Shown here piece by piece: positions 1,166-61,628 of a stretch of 64,000 nucleotides of DNA (its first letter is position 1; every line of letters starts with the position of its first letter). Both the position numbers and the translations under genes were made by a program. The notes beneath the pieces are model-generated. The model saw only the letters and a program-made list of their open reading frames with translations. It was not told the DNA's origin and did not search any database. Source of the stretch: Acidobacteriota bacterium (GTDB taxonomy: Bacteria; Acidobacteriota; Thermoanaerobaculia; Gp7-AA8); the NCBI GenBank assembly GCA_016184115.1, contig JACPDH010000077.1, positions 64,103-128,102 on the forward strand, read 5' to 3'.

Positions 1166-2518
<1,353 letters not shown>

Positions 2519-2536
2519 TCGTGGTCTCGTGCCTCC

Positions 2537-13575: not shown

Positions 13576-13715
13576 CGACTACGGCCTCCGGCCGTTATTG
13601 CGCCGCGAGAGCGACGCGTGAATCGAGCGAAATACGGCACTGCGGTTCAGCGGCGGCGGCGAGGCGCCTCCGCCACGACCCTTCAGCTACAATGCGCCGC
13701 GACGGAGACACGATC

Positions 13716-15773: not shown

Positions 15774-15841
15774 CGAATAGTGCCCGATTGGGCGCGCAAA
15801 GGTTAGCACAGGGGCTCGCGTACGGTTACAATCCGCGCCGC

Positions 15842-18205
15842 TTGAGCCGGAGAAGACTGCGCACCGAGGCCGCCGCACTGACGCTGCTCGTCGTCGTCGT
15901 GTTGATGCCGTTTCTCGACGTCCTGTTTGCGTCGGGACGTTTCTACGTTCGCGACCTCACGCGCTACTACTACCCGACCAAGCAGATCCTCCGCGACATC
16001 GTCCTGCACGGCGAGTTTCCGTACTGGAACCGCCACTACTCGGCGGGGCAACCGATTGCCGCGAACCCCGAGTACGAGATCTTCTACCCGTTGCAGTGGC
16101 TGATCCTGCTTCCCGACTACGACCTCGGATACCGGCTCCACATCATCGTTCACATTCCGATCGCGGCGATCGGGATGTACCTGCTGTTGCGGTCGCTTCG
16201 ACTGCGGATCGCGGCTGCGTTCTTCGGCGCGATCGTGTTCGCGATCGGCGGCTTGTCGATGTCGATGATCAACCTGTTGCCGATCCTGTTCTGCGTCGTC
16301 TGGATACCATGGGTGCTCCTCTTTACGAGACGGTTCCTGCGCGCGCCTAACGTGCGTGATTTCGCGCTGGCAGCGTTCTTCCTGGGGATTGAGGGGCTCG
16401 TCGGAGAGCCGACGTCGATCATGCAGACGGCGTTCCTGATGTCGGCGTACGGGTTCTGGCGCGCGATGCGAAGCGAGCGGCGGTTGCTGACGCTCGCGCG
16501 CAACGCGCTGCTCGTCGGACTGATCGGAATCGCCGGCTTTCTCGGCGGTGCGGCCCAACTCGTTCCGGCAGTCGACCACGTCGGCGATTCGGTACGCTCG
16601 CGGCCGTTCGAGCTCGGACTCGTCACCACCTGGAGTATGCCGCCGGCGCGGCCGCTCGAGCTGATCTATCCGAATCTCTTCGGGCGGTTGTTCGACTCGC
16701 CAGGAGCGTACTGGGGTTCCGGGCTCTACCCGCGCACGGCGTCGCCGTTCATCTTCAGCATCTACCTCGGGTTGATCGCGGCGGCGATGATCATCGGCGC
16801 GGTCGCAGGGCGGGTGCGCGGGCTAGTACTGTCGGCCGCGGTCCTTCTCGCCATGTTGCCAATCGCACTCGGCGGAAACACGCCGCTTTTCGACGGACTC
16901 CACGCGCTCGGCCTAACGCAGTCGATTCGATACCCGGAGAAGTTCGCGTATGCGGGACTCTTCGCGCTTAACGTGCTCGCCGCGATCGCATTCGACCGGT
17001 ACCTGAGGCGCGACGCGCGAGTGCGTCGCGCTGCTGTCGTCTTTGCGGCGGCTTCCGCGGTCGCGGCCGCAGTCTTTTTCGTCGCGACATTCACGCCCTT
17101 CTACGAGCTCGTCGTGCAAAAGGTGTGGGGCATGACGCACCGAGGACGCGTGGAGGTTGCGATTGCCGTCGCGCGTGAAGGCTGGGGCCTCGCCGTGCTT
17201 CGAGGCTTCGCGGTCGCAGGACTGCTCGCAGTCGGATGGAAGCGACGACGGATCTCCTGGCACGCGGGCGCGATCATCCTCATGCTCGTCGACCTGACGC
17301 CGGTCGGATTCGACGTCCTGCCCAGGTTCCCCGCGAAGTTCTTCACGATACCGGAGGCGGCGGCGGAGCTCCCGAGAGGAGGCGAACCCTACCGGATCTT
17401 CCATGAGGCCGACTGGTACGGAGGCAGCCAGCCTTCGAGCTCTTACTTCGGCGTCGGAGCCGATGCGTACTGGGTCGTTCGCAACGGAGTCTTCCCGATG
17501 ACGCCTGCGACGTGGGGACTCGAGACTGTGCTCGAGCGCGATTACGACAAGACAGCGCTGCTTCCGACGGTCGACCTGGTCGACGCGATGTGGCGAGCGC
17601 GCGATGCCGGCGTCAAGAACTGGCGCGAGGTTTTCGGCTCCATGTCCAACGTGGCGTACATCGCCCAGTACCGCGGATTCGAGGATGAGAAGAAGCGGAT
17701 CAAGGGAAACTTCAAGAAGTCGCGCCCCGTCGACTTCGTTCCGCAGGACGCGTCTCCGCGCTACTACTTCGCGAGCCGTTTGATCGAGGCTCGGGACGCC
17801 GATGCGATGCTCCGGAGGCTCGTGAAGGGAGATTGGTGCCGCGACTGTGCCTACGTCGCTCGCGGTGCCGGTGTGCCTGCAGCGGGTCGCGTCGCGTCCG
17901 TGAAGGAGACGGCGAACCGTGCCCGGATTGAAGTCGAGGCTGACGGCGACGCCTTCCTCGTGATGAGCGTGACGCCGCACAAATACTGGAGCGCGCGGAT
18001 CGACGGGCGGTCGGTTCCGATCGAGATCGCGAACGTCGCCTACCAGGGCGTGCGCGTTCCGGCGGGCCGGCATGTCATCGAGGTCCAGTACCGGAACACG
18101 CTCATCGTAAAGGCGGCGGCGGTGTCAGGCACGGTGCTCGTGGGGCTGCTCATTGCCGCGTTTGCGGCGCGTGGGCGTCGCGCTACCGTAGAATTCGAGT
18201 CGTGA
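15842..18205 (+). CDS. YfhO-family (GT-C fold) integral membrane glycosyltransferase-like protein, paralog 1
   Basis: N-terminal motif RDLTRYYYPTKQ...YWNRHYSAGQP...NPEYEIFYPLQWL, multiple TM segments, C-terminal periplasmic YfhO-like signature TPHKYWSARIDGRSVPIEIANVAYQGVRVPAGRHVIEVQYRN. Start uncertain (TTG at 15842, or an ATG further downstream). Confidence 0.6.
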   Translation: MSRRRLRTEAAALTLLVVVVLMPFLDVLFASGRFYVRDLTRYYYPTKQILRDIVLHGEFPYWNRHYSAGQPIAANPEYEIFYPLQWLILLPDYDLGYRLHIIVHIPIAAIGMYLLLRSLRLRIAAAFFGAIVFAIGGLSMSMINLLPILFCVVWIPWVLLFTRRFLRAPNVRDFALAAFFLGIEGLVGEPTSIMQTAFLMSAYGFWRAMRSERRLLTLARNALLVGLIGIAGFLGGAAQLVPAVDHVGDSVRSRPFELGLVTTWSMPPARPLELIYPNLFGRLFDSPGAYWGSGLYPRTASPFIFSIYLGLIAAAMIIGAVAGRVRGLVLSAAVLLAMLPIALGGNTPLFDGLHALGLTQSIRYPEKFAYAGLFALNVLAAIAFDRYLRRDARVRRAAVVFAAASAVAAAVFFVATFTPFYELVVQKVWGMTHRGRVEVAIAVAREGWGLAVLRGFAVAGLLAVGWKRRRISWHAGAIILMLVDLTPVGFDVLPRFPAKFFTIPEAAAELPRGGEPYRIFHEADWYGGSQPSSSYFGVGADAYWVVRNGVFPMTPATWGLETVLERDYDKTALLPTVDLVDAMWRARDAGVKNWREVFGSMSNVAYIAQYRGFEDEKKRIKGNFKKSRPVDFVPQDASPRYYFASRLIEARDADAMLRRLVKGDWCRDCAYVARGAGVPAAGRVASVKETANRARIEVEADGDAFLVMSVTPHKYWSARIDGRSVPIEIANVAYQGVRVPAGRHVIEVQYRNTLIVKAAAVSGTVLVGLLIAAFAARGRRATVEFES

Positions 18206-20580
18206 CCTCCAATGAGAGCGCCGATCGTCGGCAGACGGCGAGAGCCTTCGCGTTCCTCGCAGCGCTCGTGGCCGTCGCATTCGCCGATCTCCTCGTTTTC
18301 GGCAGGCGGCTCTTCATACGCGATGTCGCGAATTTCTACTTCCCGACGAAGAAGCTGCTGCGGGAGGCGTGGCTCTCGGGCGACCTGCCACTCTGGAACC
18401 ACGCCTACTCGGCCGGACAGCCGATGGCGGCGAACCCCGAGTATGGGGCGTTCTATCCGCCTCATCTTCTGCTGCTTCTGCCCGACTACGCGTTCGCGTT
18501 CCAACTGCTGATCGTCGTTCACGTCGTGATCGGTGCGTGGGGCGCCTATCGTTTTCTTCGCTCGCTCGGGCTCCGCGAGTCGTCGAGTCTCTTCGGAGCG
18601 GTGACGTTCGCGTTTGGCGGGCTGACTGCGTCGCTCCTCAATCTGCTGCCTTACCTGTTTCTGCTGACCTGGCTCCCCTGGGCGTTTCTGCATGTGAGGC
18701 GTTGGTTGACCTCGGGCGGCTGGGGAGACATGGCGCTCGCGGCGCTCTTCCTTGGATTGCAGATTCTCACGGCGGAGCCGAGCACGCTGGTTCAAGTCTG
18801 GTTGCTCGTGGGGCTCTACGCGATGCATCGCGTCGCACGAGCCGAGCGCAAGCGCGACGCGATCGAGAGGATTGCGCCGCGAGTCGGCGTGCTGCTCGTC
18901 GCCGCAATCGCGGTCGGTGCGATCCAGCTTCTGCCTGCGATCGACCATGCGGGCGACTCGGTGCGTGCGGAGCCGTTTGCCTATAAAACGGTGCGAAGTT
19001 GGAGTATGCCGTCGATCAGGCCTGCGGAGGTCGCAATTCCAGGCGCTTTCGGCCGCGTCTGGCGAGAAACGGAGACCGCGTACTTTGGCGGGATCTTCTA
19101 TGCGCCTCGACCGCTGCCGTTTCTCTTCAGCGTCTACGCCGGGATGTTAGGCTGCTGTCTCGCGGTCGCCGGGATTCGGGCGAGGCTTCCTGGTACCGGC
19201 CTGCTGCTCGCGGTCGCGGCGCTTTCGTTCGTATTCGCGCTCGGTGACCATACGCCACTGCTCCGGTGGTTGTACGACGCGGGTATCGCGACCTCGTTCC
19301 GTTACGCGGAGAAGTTCGCGATCATGGGGCTTCTCGCGCTGATGGTCTACCAGGCGCGCGCGTTCGACGCGCTTCTCGACGATCCGCGCCGGATGGGACG
19401 CGCGGCCTCGGTTGCGGCGGCGCTCTGCCTCGCAGTGTCTCTGGGGGCGGTCGTCTTCTTCTCGTCGGCGCAGGGCCCCGACCTCGCGCGCTCGCTCACG
19501 GGGTTGGGGAGCGACGACGTGCTCGCGGCGATCGTTCGTGACGCGCGCGTCGACTGGACTGCGAATTCTCTGCGGGCCGCCGTGGCCCTCGCGCTTTGCG
19601 TGGCAGCGGCACGCGGGCGGGTGGGAAGGAAATGGGTGGCGGTCGCGATCGTGAGTGCGTTCGTCGATCTTGCCGTGGCATCTCGGGCCGTCGCGCCGTC
19701 GATCGAGCCGAGCTTCTACGATGAACCGCCTGCGGCTGCGCAGCTTGGCGACGACCGCCACGCATACAGAATCTTCCCGCTCGCGGATTGGTACGACACG
19801 TTCGGCCTCAGCGAGAACGGCCGTAGGTTCGCCGCGACGGGGAAAGGCGTTTACTGGACATGCCGGAACGGGCTTGCGCCGATGATTTCAGCCGCCTGGG
19901 GTTTTCGATATGCGATGGAGGTCGACTATGACCGGACGAACCTTCTGCCGGCGAAGCGCTTCGTCGAGGTCATGTGGCGCGTGCGTAACGAGGCTGGTGA
20001 GGCGCGCGACGCGACGCTGATGGCGATGGCGGGCACGCGCTACAAGACGAGGTTCCGCGACCACTCGAGAGCAACCGTGGCAGGCATGCGCGAAGAGTCG
20101 ATCGAACCGATCGAGCTCGAGCAAAAGGGAACGGGGGAGCGGTACTACTTCGCCGATCGGATCATCATCGCACGCGATGCGGAATCGATGGCTCGTTCGA
20201 TCATCGCGGTCGATCCCGGGCCACACGCGGCGTTTCTCCCGGAGGAAATGGCGGGGGTGGCGCCCGGAAAGGTGATCTCATGGAGAGAGACGTCTCGATC
20301 AATCGAGCTGGACGTCGACGCTTCCGGGAGGTCGTTGCTCGTGCTGAGCATCACCCCGCACCGCTACTGGCGCGCGAGCGTCGACGGCAAGCCGGCCCGG
20401 CTCCTCACCGTGAACACCGGATTCAGTGGCCTGTCGTTGGAGCGCGGAAGGCAGCGGGTACTGCTCGAGTACCGCAATCCCGTCGTGATTGCAGGCGCAG
20501 AGATCAGTCTCGTCGCCGTGCTTTGTCTCGGAACAATCGCGGTAGTCAGTGGCCGCAGGCGGCGCGAGCCGCTACGGTAG
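18202..20580 (+). CDS. YfhO-family membrane glycosyltransferase-like protein, paralog 2
   Basis: RDVANFYFPTKK...LWNHAYSAGQP...NPEYGAFYP; C-terminal ITPHRYWRASVDGKPARLLTVNTGFSGLSLERGRQRVLLEYRN. GTG start overlaps the paralog-1 stop (GTGA). Confidence 0.6.
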   Translation: MTSNESADRRQTARAFAFLAALVAVAFADLLVFGRRLFIRDVANFYFPTKKLLREAWLSGDLPLWNHAYSAGQPMAANPEYGAFYPPHLLLLLPDYAFAFQLLIVVHVVIGAWGAYRFLRSLGLRESSSLFGAVTFAFGGLTASLLNLLPYLFLLTWLPWAFLHVRRWLTSGGWGDMALAALFLGLQILTAEPSTLVQVWLLVGLYAMHRVARAERKRDAIERIAPRVGVLLVAAIAVGAIQLLPAIDHAGDSVRAEPFAYKTVRSWSMPSIRPAEVAIPGAFGRVWRETETAYFGGIFYAPRPLPFLFSVYAGMLGCCLAVAGIRARLPGTGLLLAVAALSFVFALGDHTPLLRWLYDAGIATSFRYAEKFAIMGLLALMVYQARAFDALLDDPRRMGRAASVAAALCLAVSLGAVVFFSSAQGPDLARSLTGLGSDDVLAAIVRDARVDWTANSLRAAVALALCVAAARGRVGRKWVAVAIVSAFVDLAVASRAVAPSIEPSFYDEPPAAAQLGDDRHAYRIFPLADWYDTFGLSENGRRFAATGKGVYWTCRNGLAPMISAAWGFRYAMEVDYDRTNLLPAKRFVEVMWRVRNEAGEARDATLMAMAGTRYKTRFRDHSRATVAGMREESIEPIELEQKGTGERYYFADRIIIARDAESMARSIIAVDPGPHAAFLPEEMAGVAPGKVISWRETSRSIELDVDASGRSLLVLSITPHRYWRASVDGKPARLLTVNTGFSGLSLERGRQRVLLEYRNPVVIAGAEISLVAVLCLGTIAVVSGRRRREPLR

Positions 20581-20592
20581 AATCCGGCGGCG

Positions 20593-22953
20593 ATGGCGGA
20601 AGCGGGTGACGTCACGGCGGAACGCCGGAACGACTTCTTGGCGATGGCGTTGCTGTCGCTCATTGTCACGGTCCTGTACGCGGACGTGCTCTTTCTCGGG
20701 GCGAACTTTTTCACACGCGATCTTACGATCTATCACTACCCGATGAAGTGGGTCGTGCGCGAGTTGATACTCGGCGGCGACTTCCCGTACTGGAACCGGC
20801 TCTACTCCGCAGGTCAGCCGCTCGCGGCAAACCCGGCGTACGAAGTCTTTTATCCGCTCCAATGGCTGACGCTCCTGCCCGACTACAATTTTGGTTTCCG
20901 TCTCCACATCGTGGCGCACGTCTTCATCGCGGTGATCGGGGCGTACCGTTTTCTCCGTTCTCTCGAGTTGGGAGCGCCCGCGAGCCTCGCAGGTGCAACG
21001 GCATTCGGGCTTTGCGGGCCGTACGTCTCGACGGTCAACCTGTTGCCGTTTCTATTCAGCGTCAGCTGGGCGCCGTGGATCGCCCTCTACGCGCGGCGCT
21101 GGCTCCTCGCGCGGAGAGCGCGCGACTTCGCGGCGGCGGGCCTCGTCCTCGGGATGCAGGCGATCGTCTGCGAGCCCGTGACGCTTCTCCAGACGTGGGG
21201 TGTCATCGTCCTGTACGCGATCGGTGCCGGCTGGAAGCAGGGAGTGCTACGCGGGGCGATGAGAGGCGTGGCGCGATCGATCGGCCTCGTTGCGACCGGC
21301 ATCGCAGTCGCCGCAGTCCAGTTTCTCCCCGCGATCGACCACGCGTACGACTCCGTTCGAGGCCGCGGCTTCGAGCTCTGGGTCGCCTCACGGTGGAGTG
21401 TCGCGCCCGTTCGCCTCATCGAGGAGATCTTCCCGAATGTGTTTGGCTCGTCGGAGGGGCTCGGGCGGCTCTACTGGGGACAGTTTCGATTCGGCATGGA
21501 AGCGGGCGGTCCGTTTCTCTACAGCATCTATTTGTCGGTCGCGATCGTAGCGCTCGTGGTTGCTGGAATGTGGGGACGCGTGGCAGGACGGGGATTGACG
21601 GCGCTCGTGGCGGTGCCTTCCATCGTGCTTTCCTTCGGCGCGCACACTCCGCTGCTTGCGCTGATGCACGGCGCGGGGCTGCTGCCGTCAGTCCGCTACC
21701 CGGAAAAATTCATGCTTGTCGCGTCGTTCGCGTTGCTGACTTACGCGGCGATCGTGTTCGACGCGATCGTCAAGGGTAACAGTGCGTTGGCACGAAGGGG
21801 GGCGTGGCTCTGCGCTGCGTCGGGCGTTGTCGCGGCGGTGGTGTTCATTCTTTGCTTCCAGCCCGGATATCCCGAATGGTTCATGGAGTTCTGGCGTCGT
21901 ACTGACAGGAGCGCCGCATTGATCGCGCGGACGCAGTGGTTCGTCTCGGCGATTCGGAGCATCGCGTTCGCGTTCGCCTTCGCGGCACTCGCGCGCGACA
22001 CGGGGAGGAAAGCGATCGCGCTCTTCGTGCTCTTTCTCGTCGCCGACCTCGCTCCTCTCGGCAATCAGATCAATCCCCGAATCGACCGGAGCTTTTTCGA
22101 CACGCCGCCGCCTCTCCTCGCGAAGCTCGACATGCGGGGCACGAGACTCGCCCACGTTGCCGCGTTGCAGTTAGGCTCGAACGAGCAGAAAGCGTACTTC
22201 AAGTCGTACCGGACCTATTGGACGCTGCGAAACGGGCTCTGGCCCTACTCTCCCGCGCTCTGGGGTGTTCCGACCTGTCTCGAGTACGACGTTGACGAGA
22301 CGCAGCTGACGGCGACGCGCGACGTGATCGAGCTAGCCGACGTACTGTCGAAGAGGGGGATCACGGATTGGATCCCGATCGTCGGAGCGTGGTGCGCATC
22401 GGGGCCGGTGCTCACCTACCGTCATCCGGCTGCCGAGTTGAAGCGAATCGGTGATCGCTGGGACGAGATCGAACCGGTCACGGTGGATCCGTTCGTGCGA
22501 TACCCGCGGTATTTTTTTGCATCAGAAGTGGTCGCGGCTGCCGACAATACGGTACTAGCGGACTTGCTCGTCGCGCGACCGAGGAGTCCGCGCACGGCGT
22601 TCGTGAGGGAGGGCGCGTGGCGAGCCGGGAATGGCAGAGTCGTTGCCGCGCAGGAATCGGCGAGTCGCACGTTGGTCGATGTCGACGCCGGCGAAGACGC
22701 GTTTCTCGTTCTCGCTTCGACCTGGCACAAGTACTGGCGCGCAACGGTTGATGGCAGACAGGTGGAGATTGTTCCGACAAACGTCGCATTCCAGGGAATC
22801 GCAATCCCGAAGGGGGTGCATCGCGTGGAACTGCGCTACAGCAACCCGCTCATCGCGGTCGGAGGATTCCTGAGCCTGATGGCGCTCGCGACGCTTGCGG
22901 TCGTTGCAATCCGCGGCAACGGAAGAGCGGTTGGCGTAGGAGCGAACGAATGA
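20593..22953 (+). CDS. YfhO-family membrane glycosyltransferase-like protein, paralog 3
   Basis: RDLTIYHYPMKW...YWNRLYSAGQP...NPAYEVFYPLQWL; C-terminal STWHKYWRATVDGRQVEIVPTNVAFQGIAIPKGVHRVELRYSN. Confidence 0.6.
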   Translation: MAEAGDVTAERRNDFLAMALLSLIVTVLYADVLFLGANFFTRDLTIYHYPMKWVVRELILGGDFPYWNRLYSAGQPLAANPAYEVFYPLQWLTLLPDYNFGFRLHIVAHVFIAVIGAYRFLRSLELGAPASLAGATAFGLCGPYVSTVNLLPFLFSVSWAPWIALYARRWLLARRARDFAAAGLVLGMQAIVCEPVTLLQTWGVIVLYAIGAGWKQGVLRGAMRGVARSIGLVATGIAVAAVQFLPAIDHAYDSVRGRGFELWVASRWSVAPVRLIEEIFPNVFGSSEGLGRLYWGQFRFGMEAGGPFLYSIYLSVAIVALVVAGMWGRVAGRGLTALVAVPSIVLSFGAHTPLLALMHGAGLLPSVRYPEKFMLVASFALLTYAAIVFDAIVKGNSALARRGAWLCAASGVVAAVVFILCFQPGYPEWFMEFWRRTDRSAALIARTQWFVSAIRSIAFAFAFAALARDTGRKAIALFVLFLVADLAPLGNQINPRIDRSFFDTPPPLLAKLDMRGTRLAHVAALQLGSNEQKAYFKSYRTYWTLRNGLWPYSPALWGVPTCLEYDVDETQLTATRDVIELADVLSKRGITDWIPIVGAWCASGPVLTYRHPAAELKRIGDRWDEIEPVTVDPFVRYPRYFFASEVVAAADNTVLADLLVARPRSPRTAFVREGAWRAGNGRVVAAQESASRTLVDVDAGEDAFLVLASTWHKYWRATVDGRQVEIVPTNVAFQGIAIPKGVHRVELRYSNPLIAVGGFLSLMALATLAVVAIRGNGRAVGVGANE

Positions 22954-24347
22954 GGTTGGTGAATCGGTGGTCGTCGTCATTTCGATGGGTCGTCGGGCTT
23001 GTGCTCGTCGTGTTCCTCGCGCTGATCGTTCTGACGTTCCGACTCTCGAAGCCTCTCGAGGATCGCACGTACGTTCCTTTGGAGGAAGTGATTACGCCGG
23101 AGATCACACTCCTCCAGGAGTACGTCCGGATCGACACGTCGAATCCTCCCGGCAGGGAGCTCGACGGCGCAAGGTTCCTCATCGCGGAGCTCGCACGCCG
23201 GGGAGTCACGGCGGAGTTGATCGAGTCGGCCCCCGGACGTGCGAACGTCTACGCTCGCATCAAAGGGAAACGCCGCGGTGACGGACTCTTGCTTTTGCAT
23301 CACATCGATGTCGTTCCGCCAGGAGCGGAGGGATGGAGCGAACCTCCCTTTGCCGCGAAGACGAAGGCGAACATGCTCTATGGCCGGGGCACGCTCGACA
23401 TGAAGTCCATTGGTATCAGCCACCTCCTCGCGTTCGCCGATCTCGCGGCGATGGAGAGCCCGCCTCAACGCGACGTCGTATTCCTCGCGGTCGCCGATGA
23501 GGAGGCGGGCGGTGCGTTAGGCGTCGCTTGGCTGCTCGCGAACCGTCCCGACGTGTTCGAAGATGTCGGCTTTGCACTGAACGAAGGTGGGATCAGCGAG
23601 ACGGCCGAGGAGAAGCCGCGCCTTTTCGGAATCGAAGTCGGCACGCGCCAGCTCGTCAACCTCTCCCTGAAGGCGCGTGAACGGAGGCCTCTCGAGCTGG
23701 CCCGCACGGCGCTCCTCCCGTTCCAGAACCCCCGCGATCCGGAGCGCATTCTTCCCGAGGTTCCGGGGATTCTGAGAAACGCCTCGATGTACCGGATCGA
23801 GAAACGCGAGCTTCTTGCCGACGTCGAAGCGACGATCGCGAACGGCGATTTCTTCCGCTTGAGCACGGTGGATCGCTCGCTCTTCTTCTCCGCGATGAGT
23901 CTCGACGGCGTGCTCGCGGCGCCTGAAGGCGGCTTCACCATGAACGTCGTTCTGAACAACCTGTCGGACGTCAATCCTGACGATGCGATTGCGCGCGTCA
24001 GGCAGATCGTCGATCGATTCGGCGTCGCGATTGAGGTGGTCAGCAAGCAGGGGCCGTCGCCGATCACACCGACAGACTCGCGACTCTTTGCGCTCATCAG
24101 CGAGGAGGTCCGCCGTTCGTACGGCGACGAAGTCTTCGTCGGGCCGATTATTCTTCCCTTCTCCTCGAACGACTCTCGCTACCTGCGCCCGCGCGGGATC
24201 CGCGCGTACGGCCTTAGTCCGTTTCCCGTGACTCTCTACCAGACGTGGGGGATTCACGGGAGCGATGAGCGAATCCGGCTCGACTGGTTCGTCGAAGGTG
24301 TGAAGCTCACACGCCGCGTGGTGGCGAGGTTCGCGATGGAGCAGTAA
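22950..24347 (+). CDS. Secreted M20-family metallopeptidase (ArgE/DapE/ACY1/CPG2-like), paralog a
   Basis: Signal/TM anchor. HHIDVVP, GRGTLDMKS, ADEEAGG motifs. ATGA overlap with the YfhO-3 stop. Confidence 0.75.
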   Translation: MRLVNRWSSSFRWVVGLVLVVFLALIVLTFRLSKPLEDRTYVPLEEVITPEITLLQEYVRIDTSNPPGRELDGARFLIAELARRGVTAELIESAPGRANVYARIKGKRRGDGLLLLHHIDVVPPGAEGWSEPPFAAKTKANMLYGRGTLDMKSIGISHLLAFADLAAMESPPQRDVVFLAVADEEAGGALGVAWLLANRPDVFEDVGFALNEGGISETAEEKPRLFGIEVGTRQLVNLSLKARERRPLELARTALLPFQNPRDPERILPEVPGILRNASMYRIEKRELLADVEATIANGDFFRLSTVDRSLFFSAMSLDGVLAAPEGGFTMNVVLNNLSDVNPDDAIARVRQIVDRFGVAIEVVSKQGPSPITPTDSRLFALISEEVRRSYGDEVFVGPIILPFSSNDSRYLRPRGIRAYGLSPFPVTLYQTWGIHGSDERIRLDWFVEGVKLTRRVVARFAMEQ

Positions 24348-24510
24348 TTTGCGCTGGTCGGCGACAAAAATCGTCACTCGGATCGTGCCGCACGCGGAAC
24401 GGACGCCCCAACGCATTTTGCGTCAAACGTTTAGCCTTCCGCAATCGTTGGTATGTTTCTTGAACTGCACCGCAGGCGGTATCCAACCGTAACAGGAGGA
24501 AAGGAATCTT

Positions 24511-25038
24511 ATGATGCGAATCTCTCGTAAGCAGAAGGGTTTCACGCTCATTGAGCTGCTGATCGTCGTGGCGATCATCGGCATTCTGGCTGCGATCGCC
24601 ATTCCGAACCTGCTCTCCGCGATGCAGCGGTCGAAGCAGAAGAGGACGATGGCAGACATGCGTTCCATCGCGACGGCGTGGGAGTCCTACGCAACGGACT
24701 ACAACGCCTACAACGCTGCTGGTCAGGCGAGCTCGCTCGACATGGCCGACTTCAGCACCTACAGTTTCGCGAGCCTCATCGCGCGTGTCTCGCCGACCTA
24801 CATTCGCGCTCTGCCCCAGAAGGACGGGTGGGGAAATGACTTCACGTACGCCATCGATAACTCCACCGCGCTCAAGGCTCAGGAGTACGTGATTCGTTCG
24901 TTCGGCAAGGACGGACTGGAATCCGAAGGCGGTTCCTACACGAATGGACCGCGCCACGTATTCGAGTGCGACATCGTCTTCACGATGGGCGCATACGTTT
25001 CGTATCCGGAAGGCGTTCAGCAGGCGAAGTCGGACTAA
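24511..25038 (+). CDS. Type IV pilin-like protein (prepilin-type N-terminal cleavage/methylation domain)
   Basis: Leader MMRISRKQKG then mature FTLIELLIVVAIIGILAAIAIP (Phe+1, Glu+5). S/T/Y-rich C-terminal half. RBS AGGAGGA upstream. Confidence 0.8.
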   Translation: MMRISRKQKGFTLIELLIVVAIIGILAAIAIPNLLSAMQRSKQKRTMADMRSIATAWESYATDYNAYNAAGQASSLDMADFSTYSFASLIARVSPTYIRALPQKDGWGNDFTYAIDNSTALKAQEYVIRSFGKDGLESEGGSYTNGPRHVFECDIVFTMGAYVSYPEGVQQAKSD

Positions 25039-25068
25039 CGCTGACTCTCTTCTCTAGTCTTGTAGTGG

Positions 25069-25096
25069 AAAAGGGCGCCCTCGGCGCCCTTTTTCC
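25069..25096 (+). terminator. Rho-independent terminator after the pilin-like gene
   Basis: AAGGGCGCCC-tcg-GCGCCCTT followed by TTTCC. Confidence 0.7.
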
Positions 25097-25234
25097 TTAT
25101 GGACCGGGTCCGAGGACCGCGTTGTCGTTGTGTCGTGTTCCGTCGATCGCCTGCTATTCGCTGCAGCGGAATCGAGTCGATCGCCGCGCCGCTCGTCGTC
25201 GACGATGCCGATCATTCGTTATACTTCGCGCTGA

Positions 25235-26632
25235 ATGCGCCGCCTCTCTGGAATTGCTCTCATCCTCTTCGTGCTGAGCTTCGCGCAGAACTGTCGCGAG
25301 GCGGAAGCGGTTTCCGAGTCGCCGTTCGACAAGGAAGCCCAGAGTTACTTCATCGACTATCTGAAGATCGACACCTCGAACCCTCCCGGGAACGAGACCA
25401 CTGGCGCGGAGTTCCTTCGCGCAATCCTCGCGAAAGAAGGGATTGACGCAAAGCTCGTGGGACCCGACGCCGCGCGCAAATCGGTCTGGGCGCGACTCGA
25501 ATCGGGGAGCAGCAAGCCTGCGCTCCTGCTCATGCACCACATCGACGTGGTTCCGGTCGCTGAGAAGGAGTGGAGCGTCGCTCCGTTCTCCGGTGAGAAA
25601 GCGAACGGCTACATCTGGGGACGTGGCGCGCTCGACATCAAGTCGCTCGGAATCGCCCACCTCATGGCGATCATCGACATTAAGCGGCGAGGCGTGCCAC
25701 TCGACCGCGATATCGTGTTCCTTGGGGTAGCCGATGAGGAGACCGGCGGTAAGGCCGGCGTTCAGGCGCTGCTCGAACGGCAGCCCGAGCTCTTCAAAGG
25801 AGTCGGGTTCGTGCTCAACGAAGGTGGCGCAAATATTACGGTGGTCGATCGCATCGAGTCTTGGGGGATCGAAGTCGATCAAAAAGTTCCACTCTGGCTC
25901 CGCCTCACGGCGAAGGGCGAAGGGGGGCACGCGGCGATGCCTCCGCCGGATGGTGGAGCGACGCGAAAGCTGATCGAAGCCGCCTCCGCGGTCAGTGCCA
26001 TTCCGATGCGTACGGAACTGCACCCTTCGGTCGAGACATTCTTCAAATCGATCGCGCCGACCAAGCCGGGCAAGCGCGGGCAGGTGCTCTCCGATCCCCG
26101 ACGGCACATTGGTACTCCGCAGATCGCGGAGCTTCCGTACGGGCTTCAACTGCTTCTTCGCGACACGCTCGTGCTCACGCGACTCGAGGCGGGTACTTCG
26201 ACGAATGCGGTGCCTGACATCGCGACCGCAGATGTCGACATCAGGCTGTTGCCAGGCAGCGACCCATCGGATCTCATCCGACAGGTTAAGCAGGTCGTCG
26301 GTTCGCTTGCGGAGGTCGAGGTGCTGCTCAGCGGGCCGACCGCCCCTGCGTCGCCGGTCGATACCGAGTTATACACCGCGCTCGAAAAGGTGCTGCGCAG
26401 CGCCGCGCCTAAGTCGAAAGTGGGACCGATGGTTTCCGCGGGCACGACCGACAGCCGCTACTTCAGACGGCGCGGTATCGTCGCCTATGGTTTCTCACCG
26501 TTCAAGGTCAACTACTACGACGGCGCGACTGTCCACGGCTCTGACGAAAGGATCCGCATCCGCTTTTTCCTCGAAGGAGTGGCGCTGACGCGGCAGATCG
26601 TGAGCAGTTTCTGCGCCCGCAAGGCCGCATGA
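25235..26632 (+). CDS. Secreted M20-family metallopeptidase, paralog b
   Basis: Signal peptide MRRLSGIALILFVLSFA. MHHIDVVP, GRGALDIKS, ADEETGG. Same length (465 aa) as paralog a. Confidence 0.75.
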   Translation: MRRLSGIALILFVLSFAQNCREAEAVSESPFDKEAQSYFIDYLKIDTSNPPGNETTGAEFLRAILAKEGIDAKLVGPDAARKSVWARLESGSSKPALLLMHHIDVVPVAEKEWSVAPFSGEKANGYIWGRGALDIKSLGIAHLMAIIDIKRRGVPLDRDIVFLGVADEETGGKAGVQALLERQPELFKGVGFVLNEGGANITVVDRIESWGIEVDQKVPLWLRLTAKGEGGHAAMPPPDGGATRKLIEAASAVSAIPMRTELHPSVETFFKSIAPTKPGKRGQVLSDPRRHIGTPQIAELPYGLQLLLRDTLVLTRLEAGTSTNAVPDIATADVDIRLLPGSDPSDLIRQVKQVVGSLAEVEVLLSGPTAPASPVDTELYTALEKVLRSAAPKSKVGPMVSAGTTDSRYFRRRGIVAYGFSPFKVNYYDGATVHGSDERIRIRFFLEGVALTRQIVSSFCARKAA

Positions 26633-28779
26633 CGCGGCCGGCGTGGCGCCTGGCGGTGATCGCTGTCGTCGCGCTCGCTCCTTTTCTTCCGATGCTCGTG
26701 CGCGGCGAAGTGCCCGCGTTCCGCGACCATCGCGACTACTTCATTCCTCTTCGCGAAGCGACCGCCGAGGCGCTTCGGTCACACGAGCTTCCGCTCTGGA
26801 ATGCGCTCAGCGGCTCCGGCGAGCCGTGGCTCGCGAACCCGCAGACGGGCGTGTTCTATCCGCCGGCCTGGATACCGGCAGTACTCCCGTTCGAGATTGG
26901 ATACGTTCTCTTTCTCGCGCTCCATCTGGCAATTGCGGGATGGGGCTGGCGCCGCCTCATGATGCGGTGGACGGGTGACAGCGTGGCCACCCTCTCCGCC
27001 TGCGCGCTGATGCTCTCCGGTCCGATGCTCTCGCTTCTCGACGTTTCGAACTCGCTCGGCACCTTCGCGTGGATTCCGCTCCTACTTTCGTTTGCCCTCG
27101 AAGGGCGGCAGGATCGCGGCGCCGCGCGCGATGCGATCACGATCGCGCTCTGCTTTCTGGGCGGGGAACCGCTGCTCGCCCTGATCGCAGCAATTCTCTA
27201 TTCGGGCATCAGACTCCTCCGTGAAGGAGTTGCCGCGGCGCGGCCCGTAGCGGGCGTGGCGATCGTGTCGTTCCTCCTTTGCGGCGTGCAGCTACTTCCC
27301 TTCGTCGAGAGTCTCCGCGACAGCGACCGGTCTGCGGGACTCGAGGCCACGTCGTCGCTCGCTCACTCGCTGGCTCCTGTCGATTGGCTTCGCATGGCGG
27401 TTTCTCCGATGGCACCCGGAGATCGCTCCGTTGCGATGGGCTCCCAGCAGTTTCTCCCGTCGATCTATGTCACGCCGCTTCTTGCGCTTCTGCCATTTGC
27501 GGTGCCGTTGCTCTGGCATCGTGGGAGGTTACCTCGACGAGCCTGCGCCGGGCTTCTTCTGCTCCTCGTCGCGTCGGCGTTTCTCGCGGCCGGCTCGAGC
27601 ATGGCGCTGTCTTCGCGCGTCTATATGCTGCTGGGCCTCGCGGTGAATCGATACCCCGTCAAGCTCGCGTTGTTCGGAGTGCTCGCACTCGTTGCGCTCG
27701 GAACCATCTGCCTCGACCGCCTCCTCGACAGCCCGCGGCGAGACGCCTGTTGGGCGATCGCAGGCGTCGCGTTCGCCGCGACGATCCCATTCCTCGCCGC
27801 GGTCTCGGCCGGCGGCCACGCGGCCACGCTGCTGGCGGGCTGGGTCGTGCTGCTTGCCATTGCCGTCATCGCGAGACCGCCGCGAGTCTGGGTGGTTGCC
27901 GTCCTTGCGCTCGCGGTGTGCGCGGATTCGATCGCGTCGTCGCGGTTTCTGCTCGGATCACGCCCGCACACCTCCTCGATCACTCCGCACGCCGAGCTCA
28001 TGAGGAGGGACAGAAAAGTCGCTCGCCTCGAGCAGCTCGACGTGCTCATTGATCCAGCAGCGAGTCGGGCGAGCCGCGAGTCATGGCTTGGTGGTTACCT
28101 CAATCTTCGCAACGGACAGCCTGACGCGATGACGGCTGCTCCGGTCGTCGACGCGCACTACCTCGTACTCCTCGACTACGCGCTCTCTCGACCGCGACTC
28201 GACATCCTCGACGTGATCGGCGTTGGGTATCTCCTGACCATGCGGCAATTCGACGCTCCAGGGTTCCGTCAGATCGGCGAGCGTGACGGAGTGCGAATCT
28301 ACGAGCGCGATGCGGCGTTCCCGCCCGTCACGATCTGGGAGAGTCATGCGGTTGCGCGCGACCGCGACGACGCGTTCGCGTTGCTCTGGGGTGAATCGTG
28401 GAACGCGACGACGCGAATCGTCGTGACGGGCAGCGCTCCGGCACCTCTTCATGCCGCGGCCGCAGGCCCAGTGGGAACGGGGCGCGTCGTCGCAACGACC
28501 TGGCGGTCGCTAAGCGTTTCGGTGGAGTCGCCGCGGGGCGGCATTGCGGTCGTCACTCAGCGTGCGGCTCCTGGTTGGCGTGTCGTTGTCGATGGGTCTC
28601 CTCGAGAGGCTCTGCTCGTCGATGGCGTCTTTCGCGGTGTCGCGGTTCCAGCGGGCAGGCACACTGTAGTTTGGAGCTATGAGCCGCGATCGTTCGTCGC
28701 TGGCGCGGCCCTTTCGTTCACCGGTGCCGCGATCATCGCAGGCGCCCTCATTCGGCGTCGTCGGACTCGCCGCGCCTAG
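26629..28779 (+). CDS. YfhO-family membrane glycosyltransferase-like protein, paralog 4 (most divergent)
   Basis: RDHRDYFIPLRE...LWNALSGSGEPWLANPQTGVFYP. Multi-TM; C-terminal periplasmic region. 4-nt overlap with the M20b stop. Confidence 0.5.
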   Translation: MTRPAWRLAVIAVVALAPFLPMLVRGEVPAFRDHRDYFIPLREATAEALRSHELPLWNALSGSGEPWLANPQTGVFYPPAWIPAVLPFEIGYVLFLALHLAIAGWGWRRLMMRWTGDSVATLSACALMLSGPMLSLLDVSNSLGTFAWIPLLLSFALEGRQDRGAARDAITIALCFLGGEPLLALIAAILYSGIRLLREGVAAARPVAGVAIVSFLLCGVQLLPFVESLRDSDRSAGLEATSSLAHSLAPVDWLRMAVSPMAPGDRSVAMGSQQFLPSIYVTPLLALLPFAVPLLWHRGRLPRRACAGLLLLLVASAFLAAGSSMALSSRVYMLLGLAVNRYPVKLALFGVLALVALGTICLDRLLDSPRRDACWAIAGVAFAATIPFLAAVSAGGHAATLLAGWVVLLAIAVIARPPRVWVVAVLALAVCADSIASSRFLLGSRPHTSSITPHAELMRRDRKVARLEQLDVLIDPAASRASRESWLGGYLNLRNGQPDAMTAAPVVDAHYLVLLDYALSRPRLDILDVIGVGYLLTMRQFDAPGFRQIGERDGVRIYERDAAFPPVTIWESHAVARDRDDAFALLWGESWNATTRIVVTGSAPAPLHAAAAGPVGTGRVVATTWRSLSVSVESPRGGIAVVTQRAAPGWRVVVDGSPREALLVDGVFRGVAVPAGRHTVVWSYEPRSFVAGAALSFTGAAIIAGALIRRRRTRRA

Positions 28780-28867: not shown

Positions 28868-29176
28868 ATGTCCACGATTGACGACCGGTTGAATCAAATC
28901 ATTCGCGAGCTCATCTCGAGCGGTATCACGCTTGAACAGGCAGTCGAGGCGTTCGAAGCGAAGTACATCGTCGCCGCGATGAAGGAGAATCGTGGCAACG
29001 TGACGAAGGCGTCGGTCGTTCTCGGCGTTCACCGCAACACGCTGCACAACAAGCTCCGCAGTCAGGCGATGCTCAGCGGTTACGTGGCGACGCTTCGTCC
29101 GCGGCGCTCCTCATCGAAGCGCGGCGCAGCCGTGCGGGCTCGCGCGGGTGGGCACGACAACGGCAGGAAGGACTGA
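28868..29176 (+). CDS. Small Fis-family HTH DNA-binding protein
   Basis: 102 aa. EAKYIVAAMKENRGNVTKASVVLGVHRNTLHNKL resembles the C-terminal Fis-type HTH of NtrC-like proteins, here stand-alone. Confidence 0.5.
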   Translation: MSTIDDRLNQIIRELISSGITLEQAVEAFEAKYIVAAMKENRGNVTKASVVLGVHRNTLHNKLRSQAMLSGYVATLRPRRSSSKRGAAVRARAGGHDNGRKD

Positions 29177-32566: not shown

Positions 32567-33160
32567 ATGAAACTGATCGTCGGCCTGGGAAATCCGGGCG
32601 GCCGCTACGAACGTACTCGTCACAACGCCGGATTCATGGTCGTCGACGCGTTCGCGCGGAAGTTCCGGATTGAGATCGATCGCCACGAGCGCGACGCGTT
32701 CGTCGGCAAAGGCCAGATTGCGGGTCGTACCGTGATGCTCGCGAAGCCCCAGACGTTCATGAATCTCTCCGGCGAGGCGGTCTCGAAACTGGTCAAGGCG
32801 CACATCGAGTCGCTCGACGACCTCGTGGTCATTTACGACGACATCGACCTTCCAGTCGGAAAGCTGCGGATCCGACAGGGAGGCGGCTCGGGGACCCACA
32901 ACGGAATGCGATCGCTCCTCGCCTCACTCGGCACCGAGAAGTTTCCGCGCATCCGCTTCGGTGTGAAGGGGGACGACTACGCCGAGGCGCGGGACCTCGC
33001 CGACTATGTGCTCGACGACTTTCCCGCCGCGGACGAACCGAAGGTCGAGAGCACGATCGGGCGCGCGGTCGACGCGCTCGCGGTGATTGCGCGCGGTGAC
33101 CTCTCCCGTGCGATGAACCAGTTCAACCGCGATCCGGCGGAAGGTGAGGAGAAAGCGTGA
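32567..33160 (+). CDS. pth: Peptidyl-tRNA hydrolase
   Basis: MKLIVGLGNPGGRYERTRHNAGFMVVD, classic Pth N-terminus. Confidence 0.9.
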   Translation: MKLIVGLGNPGGRYERTRHNAGFMVVDAFARKFRIEIDRHERDAFVGKGQIAGRTVMLAKPQTFMNLSGEAVSKLVKAHIESLDDLVVIYDDIDLPVGKLRIRQGGGSGTHNGMRSLLASLGTEKFPRIRFGVKGDDYAEARDLADYVLDDFPAADEPKVESTIGRAVDALAVIARGDLSRAMNQFNRDPAEGEEKA

Positions 33161-34746
33161 CGAGACCGGAGACACTTGGCGAGCTTCGCGCTTCGGGTTA
33201 CGCGCCGCGCTCCGTGAAGGACGAGCTTCGCGAGAATCTGACGAAGCGACTCGCCGCGCGCGAGACGGTCTTCCCTGGAATCCTCGGCTACGAGCGCACC
33301 GTCATCCCTGCCTTACAGAACGCGATTCTCGCGAGGCACGACATCATTCTTCTCGGTCTCCGCGGCCAGGCGAAAACGCGTCTGCTCCGCTCGCTCGCGC
33401 AACTGCTCGATGAGGAGATCCCGGTCGTCGATGGCTGCGAGATCAACGACGCGCCGTTCGATCCCGTTTGCCGGCGCTGCGGACGGCTGCTCGAAGAGCT
33501 CGGCGACCAGATGCCGATCGCCTGGTTGCCGCGCGTCGATCGGTACCGCGAGAAGCTCGCCACGCCTGACGTTACAGTCGCCGACCTCATCGGCGACATC
33601 GACCCGATCAAGGCGGCGAACAAGCGCCTTACATACGCCGATGAGGAGGTCATTCACTTCGGCATCATCCCGCGGACGAATCGCGGCATCTTCGCTGTGA
33701 ACGAGCTTCCCGACCTCGCACCGCGCATCCAGGTTTCGCTGCTCAACATTCTCGAGGAGCGCGATCTCCAGATTCGCGGCTTTCCGGTTCGGATTCCGCT
33801 CGACGTCGTCCTCGTCTTCAGCGCGAATCCTGAGGACTACACGAGTCGCGGGAACATCATCACGCCGCTCAAGGACCGGATCGACTCGCAGATCCTCACG
33901 CACTATCCGAAGTCGACCGACGTCGCGCGCGAGATCACGAGGCAGGAGGCATGGCTCGACCGCGACGGCGTCAAGGCGCGAATCGTGATTCCGGAACAGG
34001 TACGCGAGCTCGTCGAGCAAATCGCCTTCTCCGCGCGCGAATCGGAGCTCGTCGATCAGTCGTCGGGCGTCTCGGCGCGCATGCCGATCTCTGCGATCGA
34101 GATCCTCGTCTCGAATCTCGAGCGGCGCGCCATCGCGACGGGCGATCGTGAGGTCTACCCACGCCTCGCCGACCTGGCGATGGTGCTTCCCGCGATCACC
34201 GGAAAGGTCGAGATGGTCTACGAAGGGGAGCAGCAGGGATCGGAGGTCGTCGCGCGCAAGCTGGTGGGAGACGCCGTCACGAAGCTCTTCGAGCAGACGT
34301 TTCCTCCAGTCGAGCGCGCAGGGCGGGGCGTGGCCGCCGGGCGCGACCGCGAGCGACGTGGGTACGGGGAGATCGATCCTGAGCTCCGTGACGATGGCGA
34401 GGCGAGGCGACGGAGGAAACAGAGAGCTGAAGAGCACGAAGAGCCACGCGCCGAGGGAGATCCCGACTACGAGGCAATCGTCGCATGGTTCATGTCGGGC
34501 AATCGGATCACGCTCTCGGATGAGCAGCCGTACGACGAGTACTTCCGCGAGCTGCAGCGTGTTCCGAAGCTTTCAGACGTCGCTCGAAGGCATGCAAAGC
34601 CTTCGTCCGAGCCAGAGCTTGCGTTCGCAATGGAGATGATCCTCGAGGCGCTTCACCAGGCGCTTCGCCTCAGCCGGGAGGACCTCGATTCGACGATCAC
34701 CTTCACGGAGCTCATGAAGTTCAATATTCTGCGTACAATCAAGTAG
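33157..34746 (+). CDS. ChlI/BchI-like AAA+ ATPase (magnesium-chelatase family) with C-terminal extension
   Basis: Variant P-loop GLRGQAKT, sensor/arginine-finger region FAVNELPDLAPRIQVSLLNILEERDLQIRG...VLVFSANPEDY. 4-nt overlap with the pth stop. Confidence 0.55.
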   Translation: MTRPETLGELRASGYAPRSVKDELRENLTKRLAARETVFPGILGYERTVIPALQNAILARHDIILLGLRGQAKTRLLRSLAQLLDEEIPVVDGCEINDAPFDPVCRRCGRLLEELGDQMPIAWLPRVDRYREKLATPDVTVADLIGDIDPIKAANKRLTYADEEVIHFGIIPRTNRGIFAVNELPDLAPRIQVSLLNILEERDLQIRGFPVRIPLDVVLVFSANPEDYTSRGNIITPLKDRIDSQILTHYPKSTDVAREITRQEAWLDRDGVKARIVIPEQVRELVEQIAFSARESELVDQSSGVSARMPISAIEILVSNLERRAIATGDREVYPRLADLAMVLPAITGKVEMVYEGEQQGSEVVARKLVGDAVTKLFEQTFPPVERAGRGVAAGRDRERRGYGEIDPELRDDGEARRRRKQRAEEHEEPRAEGDPDYEAIVAWFMSGNRITLSDEQPYDEYFRELQRVPKLSDVARRHAKPSSEPELAFAMEMILEALHQALRLSREDLDSTITFTELMKFNILRTIK

Positions 34747-34748
34747 CC

Positions 34749-35162: not shown

Positions 35163-35184
35163 CGATCGAAGAGGGGCGGAGAGG

Positions 35185-61552: not shown

Positions 61553-61628
61553 AACCCAATTCTAAGGCCGCCGGTGCCGATTCGGCCGCCCTTTGACTTT
61601 TCCCGCTGTCCCGAGAAGAATGCCCGCC

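Follow-up and report, generated by a model that had tools for sequence, protein, structure and literature searches.

A prepilin gene linked to YfhO-family glycosyltransferase genes in Thermoanaerobaculia, a candidate substrate of pilin O-glycosylation

Pilin glycosylation alters pilus surface chemistry, adhesion, and phage susceptibility, and, to our knowledge, only a few enzyme families are known to carry it out, namely the oligosaccharyltransferases of the PilO/TfpO/PglL type and TfpW. Here, we discuss a prepilin-type gene in a 64-kb stretch of DNA (contig JACPDH010000077.1, positions 64,103 to 128,102; hereafter, the window) from an acidobacterium of the class Thermoanaerobaculia, an abundant and almost uncultured lineage of soils and sediments. 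As a first-pass annotation of the window had stated, the gene lies between two paralogs of the M20 metallohydrolase family (M20a and M20b) and is flanked by genes of the YfhO family, three of which are upstream (YfhO1 to YfhO3) and one downstream (YfhO4). Our best overall explanation, to which we would assign a probability of about 0.45, is that it encodes a sigma-54-driven type IVa pilin that is a candidate substrate for O-glycosylation by YfhO enzymes. In the literature, we found no prior description of an association between YfhO and a pilin or between Thermoanaerobaculia and type IV pili.

In Pseudomonas aeruginosa, the group IV pilin is glycosylated by TfpW, a GT-C enzyme encoded beside pilA (bioRxiv 10.1101/2020.04.19.049825; PMC5836110). 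The locus that we describe resembles that system in that the pilin gene adjoins a polytopic GT-C enzyme with a large periplasmic C-terminal domain, and the sugar would likewise be carried on a polyprenyl phosphate loaded in the cytoplasm. Moreover, in one group of relatives (the L077 type, arrangement C below), the YfhO gene is directly downstream of the pilin gene, as tfpW is. In contrast, our enzyme is a member of the YfhO family (PF09586) and not of the TfpW/Emb-like one, genes for D-arabinofuranose biosynthesis are absent, and exported M20 hydrolases and as many as four YfhO paralogs are encoded in addition. The main YfhO genes of the window are also upstream of the pilin gene, in a separate transcription unit, and pilin glycosylation is deduced from the genes rather than demonstrated.

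Members of the YfhO family itself are known to modify proteins. PgtC2 and PgfM1 O-glycosylate Ser/Thr-rich extracytoplasmic protein regions together with glycosyltransferases of the GtrB/PgfS type, which have a GT-A fold and among which GtrB makes glucosyl-phosphoryl-undecaprenol (Glc-P-Und) (PMC12041528). Both the Pgf (PgfS/PgfM1/PgfM2) and the GtrB/PgtC2 systems thus pair a YfhO-family GT-C with a GT2-type enzyme, as the window does, and the genes for the adhesin substrates are found in the same cluster as pgf (PMC12041528; PMC5856776). The NCBIfam models for PgfM1, PgfM2, and PgfS match window proteins weakly, far under their equivalog cutoffs. However, these systems belong to monoderm Firmicutes, their substrates are disordered Ser/Thr-rich regions of adhesins and membrane proteins and not pilins, the epimerase PgfE has no counterpart here, and they have no M20 partner. 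The CsbB-YfhO pair of Bacillus subtilis and Lmo1079 of Listeria also combine a GT2 gene with a YfhO gene, and YfhO has 13 transmembrane (TM) helices, the last of which is preceded by a large loop (PMC5836110), a topology that the window proteins share. Nevertheless, the known substrates of these enzymes are lipoteichoic or wall teichoic acids, which should be absent from a diderm that encodes LpxC. Such a cell, a diderm that would not contain the teichoic acids on which YfhO classically acts, is indicated by the lpxC gene of the window.

The same logic is found in the ArnC-ArnD-ArnT pathway for the addition of aminoarabinose to lipid A, in which a GT2 enzyme loads polyprenyl phosphate and is joined by a deacylase and a GT-C transferase. 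ArnT (PDB 5f15) is a significant structural match of YfhO4, and the ArnC model matches the GT2 protein of the window weakly. The hydrolase here, however, is an exported M20 enzyme and not a deformylase of the ArnD type acting at the cytoplasmic face, and nothing points to an amino sugar or a lipid A target. Taken together, these comparisons suggest that the conserved module of pilin, YfhO, and, in many cases, M20 is a new form of a known theme, that of pilin genes with adjacent accessory glycosyltransferases, although this is a prediction and not a demonstrated mechanism.

The pilin and its expression signals

The product of the gene almost certainly belongs to the type IV pilin superfamily. 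The reading frame encodes 175 residues, in agreement with the translation in the first-pass annotation, and the protein starts with MMRISRKQKG followed by FTLIELLIVVAIIGILAAIAIPN. Cleavage of this ten-residue leader after Gly10 would leave a mature pilin of 165 residues, and the Gly at -1, Phe at +1, and Glu at +5 (FTLIELL) are those expected of a class III signal peptide. The protein matches Pfam N_methyl (PF07963; E 3.1e-11, 42.8 bits against a cutoff of 21.2), TIGR02532 (39 bits against 16.3), and Pfam T2SSG (PF08334; E 1.7e-07, 31.7 bits against 21), the last of which identifies a head of the GspG type, while the best NCBIfam model, that of GspG (TIGR01710), scores 76.1 bits and, thus, stays under its cutoff of 88.85. 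More than 7,400 homologs were found at E < 1e-5, the closest of which are full-length proteins with 57–75% identity from metagenome-assembled genomes (MAGs) of Thermoanaerobaculia. In an alignment of 52 homologs, residues 10–58 are nearly invariant and the head contains the conserved motifs SPTYI-x3-P-x2-DGW, GKDG, and F(E/D)CDIV(Y/F)-x2-G-x5-PEG, with the almost invariant sole Cys of the protein, Cys153, in the F(E/D)CDIV motif. Residues ~72–92, on the other hand, form a hypervariable loop rich in Ser, Thr, and Ala. At the end of the N-terminal helix, T62-D63-x-N65-x-Y67 is invariant or almost so (T62 is present in 96% of sequences); the invariant D63-x-N65-x-Y67 was considered as a PglB-type N-glycosylation sequon and rejected, as it has no Ser or Thr at +2.

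The AlphaFold2 model of the pilin (predicted local distance difference test, pLDDT, 82.3) has a helix of about 50 residues (13–63) followed by strands between residues 75 and 166, which corresponds to the lollipop fold of type IV pilins. We relied on a sequence-profile search for structural relatives, as long-helix pilins align poorly in Foldseek. Among PDB sequences, the profile of the pilin alignment matched PilA of Geobacter, Myxococcus, and Thermus over the N-terminal helix (E 7e-17 to 2e-12) and GspG structures over residues 11–135 (E 1.3e-11 for the 5wda chain). The protein is thus predicted to consist of an N-terminal helix and a small beta-sheet head that is related to GspG.

The gene has turned out to be, as previously annotated, a genuine prepilin-type gene with its own promoter, ribosome-binding site, and terminator. 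The binding site, AGGAGG, is conserved as CAGGAGG in orthologous loci. A simple terminator scan missed the hairpin that follows the gene, probably since pairing between the A-tract and the U-tract lengthens the stem, and it was therefore folded directly. The hairpin, GGGCGCC-CUC-GGCGCCC followed by U5 (25073-25094), has a free energy of -28.4 kcal/mol (z = -4.4), with none of 200 shuffled sequences being as stable, and it is also found directly after the orthologous first pilin gene in two of the nearest relatives (L001 and L010). An Rfam scan of positions 24300-25300 for riboswitches or small RNAs gave only a chance-level match.

The sigma-54-type element upstream of the gene had been annotated with low confidence, and comparison with related loci strengthens it. 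In around 40 orthologous pilin loci, the a-priori consensus TGG-N9-TGC is located at positions -33 to -44 relative to the estimated start. In the majority of relatives (arrangement A below), a canonical TGGTAT-N5-TTGC is present at the equivalent place, while the loci arranged as in the window carry TGGTAY-N5-TTGA or TTGG about 60 nt upstream of the pilin gene. A relaxed core that covers both forms, which was defined after the data were seen, is found within 130 nt upstream of 58 of the 63 first pilin genes that follow M20, against a background of 0.013 per 140 nt. In the window, the pattern TGGYAY-N5-TTGM has two sites where 0.24 would be expected. The promoter is very probably real, and the change of the -12 C to A is fixed in the clade as a TTGA/TTGG variant instead of being a one-off. 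Later tandem copies of the pilin gene in relatives have a sigma-54 element of their own in 18 of 55 cases. The second site in the window (TGGCACGTGCCTTGA; 60803-60817, forward strand) is within, or opposite to, an unannotated open reading frame (ORF) on the reverse strand (60705-61688).

The reverse strand of the window also encodes an NtrC-type sigma-54 activator and a histidine kinase (1166-4690). They are about 20 kb from the pilin gene and could be candidate regulators of the PilR/PilS type.

YfhO enzymes and their linkage to pilin genes

All four YfhO proteins match Pfam PF09586 above its cutoff of 28.5 bits (38.0, 41.7, 29.3, and 44.8 bits for YfhO1 to YfhO4), although the match covers only the C-terminal 60–80 residues, and their homologs carry precomputed matches to PF09586, PF09594, and PF10131. 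Hydropathy predicts around 11 to 13 TM segments, a large C-terminal extracytoplasmic domain, and a terminal TM helix. The four proteins share an (F/V)RD...P...PxWN motif after the first TM segment, where R32-D33-H34 is invariant in 46 homologs of YfhO4 and supplies the conserved acidic residue expected in the first extracytoplasmic loop of these enzymes; the same pattern did not find the RD motif at this position in the L077-type YfhO. With phmmer, YfhO4 matched no PDB sequence, and a structure search took the place of this comparison. YfhO4 was modelled confidently with AlphaFold2 (pLDDT 92.7), and all significant Foldseek matches of the model in the PDB are GT-C enzymes, including AftD (2.8e-08), ArnT (1.9e-05), STT3 (3.9e-05), and AftA (3.1e-04). 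The top 14 matches all belong to this class, with AglB and PglB matching more weakly at probabilities of 0.99–1.00. Thus, YfhO4 is predicted to be a glycosyltransferase with a GT-C fold, and family precedent suggests that it would take sugar from a polyprenyl-phosphate donor and pass it to an acceptor outside the cytoplasm (PMC5836110, PMC12041528). YfhO was the only family among the family matches of these proteins, with no Wzy_C or TfpW-like family among them; no direct comparison with TfpW was made.

The GT2 protein has no TM segment, and its gene always adjoins that of YfhO1 in relatives. Its best NCBIfam matches are AglJ, PpgS, the Dol-P-hexose transferase, PgfS, and ArnC, all under their cutoffs, and it therefore resembles a polyprenyl-phosphate-sugar synthase and may be regarded as a candidate for that function. 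Both M20 proteins have export signals and intact metal-binding and catalytic motifs of the family. The YfhO and M20 genes form translationally coupled pairs, with codon overlaps between YfhO3 and M20a and between M20b and YfhO4, and this combination of a GT-C enzyme with a periplasmic M20 appears to be uncharacterised.

The earlier proposal of a glycosylated product had been made to depend on whether the linkage to YfhO is conserved. We compared around 140 related loci, which include metagenome-assembly loci around homologs and 80 loci from GTDB species genomes, with neighbours mapped by tblastn, and the linkage between pilin and YfhO is kept across the class Thermoanaerobaculia in three arrangements. 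The majority, arrangement A, has the order accD-folC-glyA-(cysG)-GT2-YfhO-M20-pilin, with one to three tandem pilin copies, followed on the other strand by genes for a 207-aa Zn-ribbon protein and a 381-aa ATPase and then by ruvX-yceG. The TIGR01420 model identifies the ATPase as PilT/PilU (412.9 bits; cutoff, 319.1). Arrangement B, that of the window and its nearest relatives, reads GT2-YfhO1(-YfhO2-YfhO3)-M20a-pilin-M20b-YfhO4-HTH8-RNase R, with one or two pilin copies. In arrangement C (for instance, L061, L069, L077, and L083), an ATP-grasp gene on the opposite strand is followed by pilin-pilin-YfhO-Peptidase_A24 (PilD) and, on the opposite strand, by PilT and a PilT-HEAT fusion.

The ortholog of M20a is directly upstream of the pilin gene in 48 of the 65 evaluable GTDB loci, with a median gap of 166 nt, and the complete GT2, YfhO, and M20 set precedes it in 34 of 46. 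PilT follows downstream in 43 of 64 evaluable loci. These neighbours are missing from the loci of arrangement C, from those of more distant homologs, which do not exceed 54% identity and in some cases come from the same MAGs, and from a few contigs that end before the upstream genes. Although the orientation of GT2 changes, insertions occur elsewhere, and there are two downstream contexts, the YfhO-M20-pilin core is intact. A metagenome scan with the YfhO of arrangement C added 49 loci with YfhO identities down to 43%; the pilin gene is directly upstream of YfhO in 41 of the 43 evaluable ones, and PilD is directly downstream wherever the sequence reaches far enough. Thus, the first-pass description of a stand-alone gene is correct for the window, in which we found no pilus assembly genes (as had been stated), no PilD-type A24 peptidase, and no other prepilin, but it does not extend to relatives, where the gene adjoins PilT/PilU or is part of a pilin-YfhO-pilD-pilT cluster.

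Some details of these loci are worth recording. In arrangement C (L077 8367-20414; L093-L141), the ATP-grasp protein is PGM1_C-like, there are one or two pilin genes, and one of the PilT-family ATPases is a 1034-aa fusion with N-terminal HEAT repeats. Two of the metagenomic loci (L115 and L116) keep YfhO-PilD with no pilin gene within 8 kb upstream. In arrangement A, the 207-aa protein (L006 10642-11268, reverse strand, and equivalents) is always encoded between pilin and pilT. It has an N-terminal CxxC...CxxC zinc ribbon, a faint match to Pfam DUF7836, and no NCBIfam match, and its function could be that of a so far unrecognised accessory or regulatory protein of the pilus. A paralog locus in a close relative (L045) has no pilus or secretion genes, its neighbours being Kup, LysE, a two-component system, and a kinase.

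Alternative readings of the pilin and its neighbours

Two known groups of proteins are relevant to the kind of pilin that is encoded here. The pilA genes of Myxococcus, Geobacter, and Pseudomonas are sigma-54-dependent, and our gene resembles them in its -24/-12 promoter, its strong terminator, and the nearness of its orthologs to pilT, as well as in the close similarity of its N-terminal 60 residues (E 5.5e-15 to 6.7e-17; PDB 8tj2 and 7tgg). It differs from them in its GspG-like head with one Cys, in the TTGA of its clade at -12, and in having no adjacent pilS/pilR. GspG (TIGR01710; PDB 5wda, 3g20, and 3fu1) has a homologous leader, N-terminal helix, and head and also has no disulfide pair, but the pilin is around 25–30 residues longer, contains the hypervariable loop, and is linked to pilT and pilD and never to a gsp operon. 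We consider it probable that the protein, with its GspG-like head and its sigma-54-dependent gene, builds type IVa pili as their major, PilA-like subunit, since its orthologs adjoin pilT and pilD, its monocistronic signals suggest high expression, and its N-terminus is closest to PilA. The sigma-54 promoter, the strong ribosome-binding site and terminator, and the near-invariance of residues 10–58 would indirectly agree with an abundant subunit of a retractile filament. That the protein serves a type II secretion system (T2SS) as its major pseudopilin, GspG, perhaps with the neighbouring M20 peptidases as secreted substrates, is, in contrast, very unlikely. This idea draws on the T2SSG domain, the best NCBIfam model, and the matching structures, on the name "type II secretion system protein G" given to the homologs by JGI, and on the alignment of the GKDG...(E/D)CDI segment with the region of GspG that binds calcium. 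We set it aside because the TIGR01710 score is below its cutoff and the gene is never in a gsp context, with no gsp gene near the pilin in the window or in the related loci. Moreover, the neighbours are pilD and retraction-type ATPases (PilT/PilU), which T2SS lack, the mature pilin is longer than GspG, and M20a is predicted to be membrane-anchored and not secreted. Even less probable, in our view, is a pseudopilin piston for polysaccharide export, similar to cyanobacterial Hps, with YfhO and GT2 building or decorating the exported polymer. Pilin-like genes do cluster with glycosyltransferases, and the HpsB pseudopilin model matches weakly (E 0.0077), but only over the generic N-terminal helix; the cluster has no Wzx/Wzy, Wza, or ABC transporter genes, and the adjacency to PilT points to a retractile pilus.

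The more difficult question is whether the association with YfhO is functional. An alternative that we hold to be somewhat less probable is that the genes are neighbours only by descent, in which case the pilin would be an ordinary unglycosylated one, with a sigma-54 promoter, and GT2, YfhO, and M20 would modify lipopolysaccharide or lipid A, exopolysaccharide, or other periplasmic proteins. The whole region from accD-folC-glyA through GT2-YfhO-M20-pilin-pilT to ruvX-yceG is syntenic across the class, so that the adjacency could be inherited along with that of the functionally unlinked accD, folC, glyA, ruvX, and yceG. The M20b-YfhO4 pair is found away from any pilin gene in other genomes, beside thymidine kinase and RNase R genes in L091 and L092, and the several extra YfhO paralogs scattered in these genomes raise the odds of chance adjacency. 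The pilin gene has its own promoter and terminator and, thus, is not co-transcribed with the YfhO genes, and the structural neighbours of YfhO4 include AftD, ArnT, and AftA, which modify lipids or polysaccharides. Nonetheless, M20a and pilin have stayed joined where pilin and pilT came apart (in the window clade and in loci with insertions of up to 3.6 kb), and GT2 inverts while the YfhO-M20-pilin core stays whole. In the clade of the window, the far side of the pilin gene has gained a YfhO/M20 pair as well, and, in a separate lineage, a different YfhO paralog is located between the pilin genes and pilD in the 41 of 43 metagenomic loci noted above. A functional link is plausible because the adjacency persists in three differently organised loci, because of the survival of the M20a-pilin junction, and because of this position of the arrangement C YfhO between pilin genes and pilD.

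Several further observations weigh against our explanation of a type IVa pilin glycosylated by YfhO. The mature pilin is indeed rich in Ser and Thr, as the first-pass annotation had pointed out (15.8% against 9.8% in soluble neighbour proteins), but this content is typical of pilins, with 16.2% in the family as a whole, and does not hold as evidence of glycosylation. In the variable loop, the content is 21.5% in homologs linked to YfhO/M20 and 20.1% in unlinked ones (p = 0.64, with only 6 unlinked homologs). No flippase gene was found in the cluster and no pilus assembly or secretion machinery in the window; the expected association with type IVa genes is seen in relatives (43 of 64 loci with PilT/PilU; pilD and two pilT genes in the L077 type) and not in the window itself. 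The protein has one Cys and, therefore, lacks the disulfide-bonded C-terminal D-region of type IVa pilins, although some bona fide major pilins also lack a disulfide. The -12 element in the window is TTGA instead of TTGC, a Foldseek search of the pilin model against the PDB gave nothing significant (the best match being Myxococcus PilA, 8tj2, E 0.12), and there is no direct evidence of a glycan, pilin glycosylation being what we infer from the genes. We therefore regard the pilin as a possible substrate of YfhO-dependent O-glycosylation, somewhat short of an even chance by analogy with the systems described above. More tentatively, YfhO GT-C enzymes, which have so far been connected with the glycosylation of teichoic acids and of streptococcal surface proteins in monoderms, may in diderm Acidobacteriota be O-glycosyltransferases of type IV pilins, a class that has gone unrecognised. 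They would act with a GT2 that makes the polyprenyl-phosphate sugar and, for most lineages, a periplasmic M20 dedicated to the processing of the glycan or of the pilin, and the YfhO paralogs and tandem pilins could then diversify the pilus surface, for example, against phages.

If the pilin is glycosylated in this way, transcription from the sigma-54 promoter would require an enhancer-binding protein, and the product would be processed by a prepilin peptidase. O-glycosylation would take place before assembly, when the pilin is still in the inner membrane and has its head on the periplasmic side. On the cytoplasmic side, the soluble GT2 would charge polyprenyl phosphate with a sugar, a putative flippase would flip the lipid-linked sugar, and a YfhO-type GT-C would move the sugar to Ser or Thr residues of the hypervariable loop (~72–88) or of the C-terminal tail. 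More speculatively, the exported M20 hydrolases could be periplasmic amidohydrolases that de-N-acylate an amino sugar or trim a peptide, although we find any specific role for them doubtful. The pilus would then be assembled by machinery encoded outside the window.

Should this proposal be correct, YfhO would be an added family of pilin-glycosylating enzymes, with a new accessory hydrolase, and protein glycosylation of the YfhO type would extend from Firmicutes to diderm bacteria. It would also provide a testable function for the expanded sets of YfhO paralogs in Thermoanaerobaculia. If, on the contrary, the link is only one of synteny, the gene would be an ordinary pilin gene. Apart from glycosylation, the comparison identifies a likely major pilin and its sigma-54 promoter for the class, with a drift of the -12 element to TTGA in one clade.

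Origin of the arrangement and other features of the window

The position of the pilin gene between two M20 paralogs arose by the fusion of two loci, GT2-YfhO1-M20a-pilin and M20b-YfhO4-HTH8-RNase R. YfhO1 and M20a correspond as orthologs to the YfhO and the M20 that arrangement A has in one copy each, and YfhO2 and YfhO3 are lineage-specific duplicates. Elsewhere, M20b-YfhO4-HTH8-RNase R is a separate locus that follows aminotransferase and thymidine kinase genes with no pilin gene nearby (for the M20b-YfhO4 pair, L091 4968-8818 and L092 5586-9001). In the clade of the window, pilin and pilT parted because the two loci were joined. The nearest relatives have a second tandem pilin gene between the first one and M20b (L001 10612-11112 and L010 10573-11055). 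We found no remnant of it in positions 25039-25234 of the window, a 196-nt spacer that matches only the region upstream of M20b in relatives. Thus, the window either lost the second pilin or never had it, and the copy number varies from one to three across the class. The coordinates of the main features are given in Table 1.

Table 1. Features of the 64-kb window discussed in the text (positions are those of the window).
Feature	Position	Strand	Remarks
NtrC/NtrX-like sigma-54 enhancer-binding response regulator	1166-2518	-	
Histidine kinase	2537-4690	-	Beside the NtrC/NtrX-like regulator
LpxC	5285-6199	-	
GT2 glycosyltransferase	15000-15773	-	257 aa from Met36, soluble; Pfam Glycos_transf_2, E 1.6e-22
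YfhO1	15701-18205	+	Orthologous to the one YfhO that most relatives have ahead of M20-pilin
YfhO2	18202-20580	+	Lineage-specific paralog, 38% identity to YfhO1
YfhO3	20593-22953	+	Lineage-specific paralog; stop codon overlaps M20a start
M20a metallohydrolase	22950-24347	+	N-terminal membrane anchor, predicted exported catalytic domain
Sigma-54-type -24/-12 element	24449-24464	+	TGGTAT-GTTTC-TTGAA; -12 C replaced by A
Ribosome-binding site	24494-24499	+	AGGAGG; CAGGAGG conserved in orthologous loci
Prepilin	24511-25038	+	Between M20a and M20b
Intrinsic terminator	25069-25094	+	A-tract, 7-bp all-GC stem, CUC loop, U5
M20b metallohydrolase	25235-26632	+	Signal peptide; stop codon overlaps YfhO4 start
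YfhO4	26629-28779	+	Divergent YfhO-family GT-C glycosyltransferase (predicted); Pfam YfhO 44.8 bits; locus tag HYU52_12195
Fis-type HTH_8 small protein	28868-29176		Always follows YfhO4

Some gene boundaries deserve comment. The true start of GT2 is probably Met36 (15773), and YfhO1 may start later than 15701. The ORF for serine hydroxymethyltransferase (533 aa from 13392; region 12238-14993, forward strand) overlaps the end of a folC-like gene by around 180 nt and exceeds its orthologs (427–433 aa) by about 100 aa; its real start is probably downstream. Further along, positions 33157-38021 of the forward strand encode an AAA_5 (MoxR-like) ATPase, a VWA-domain protein, and an S8 subtilase, which are co-directional and downstream of pth; this cluster is unrelated to the pilin, and its AAA_5 gene is conserved in relatives.

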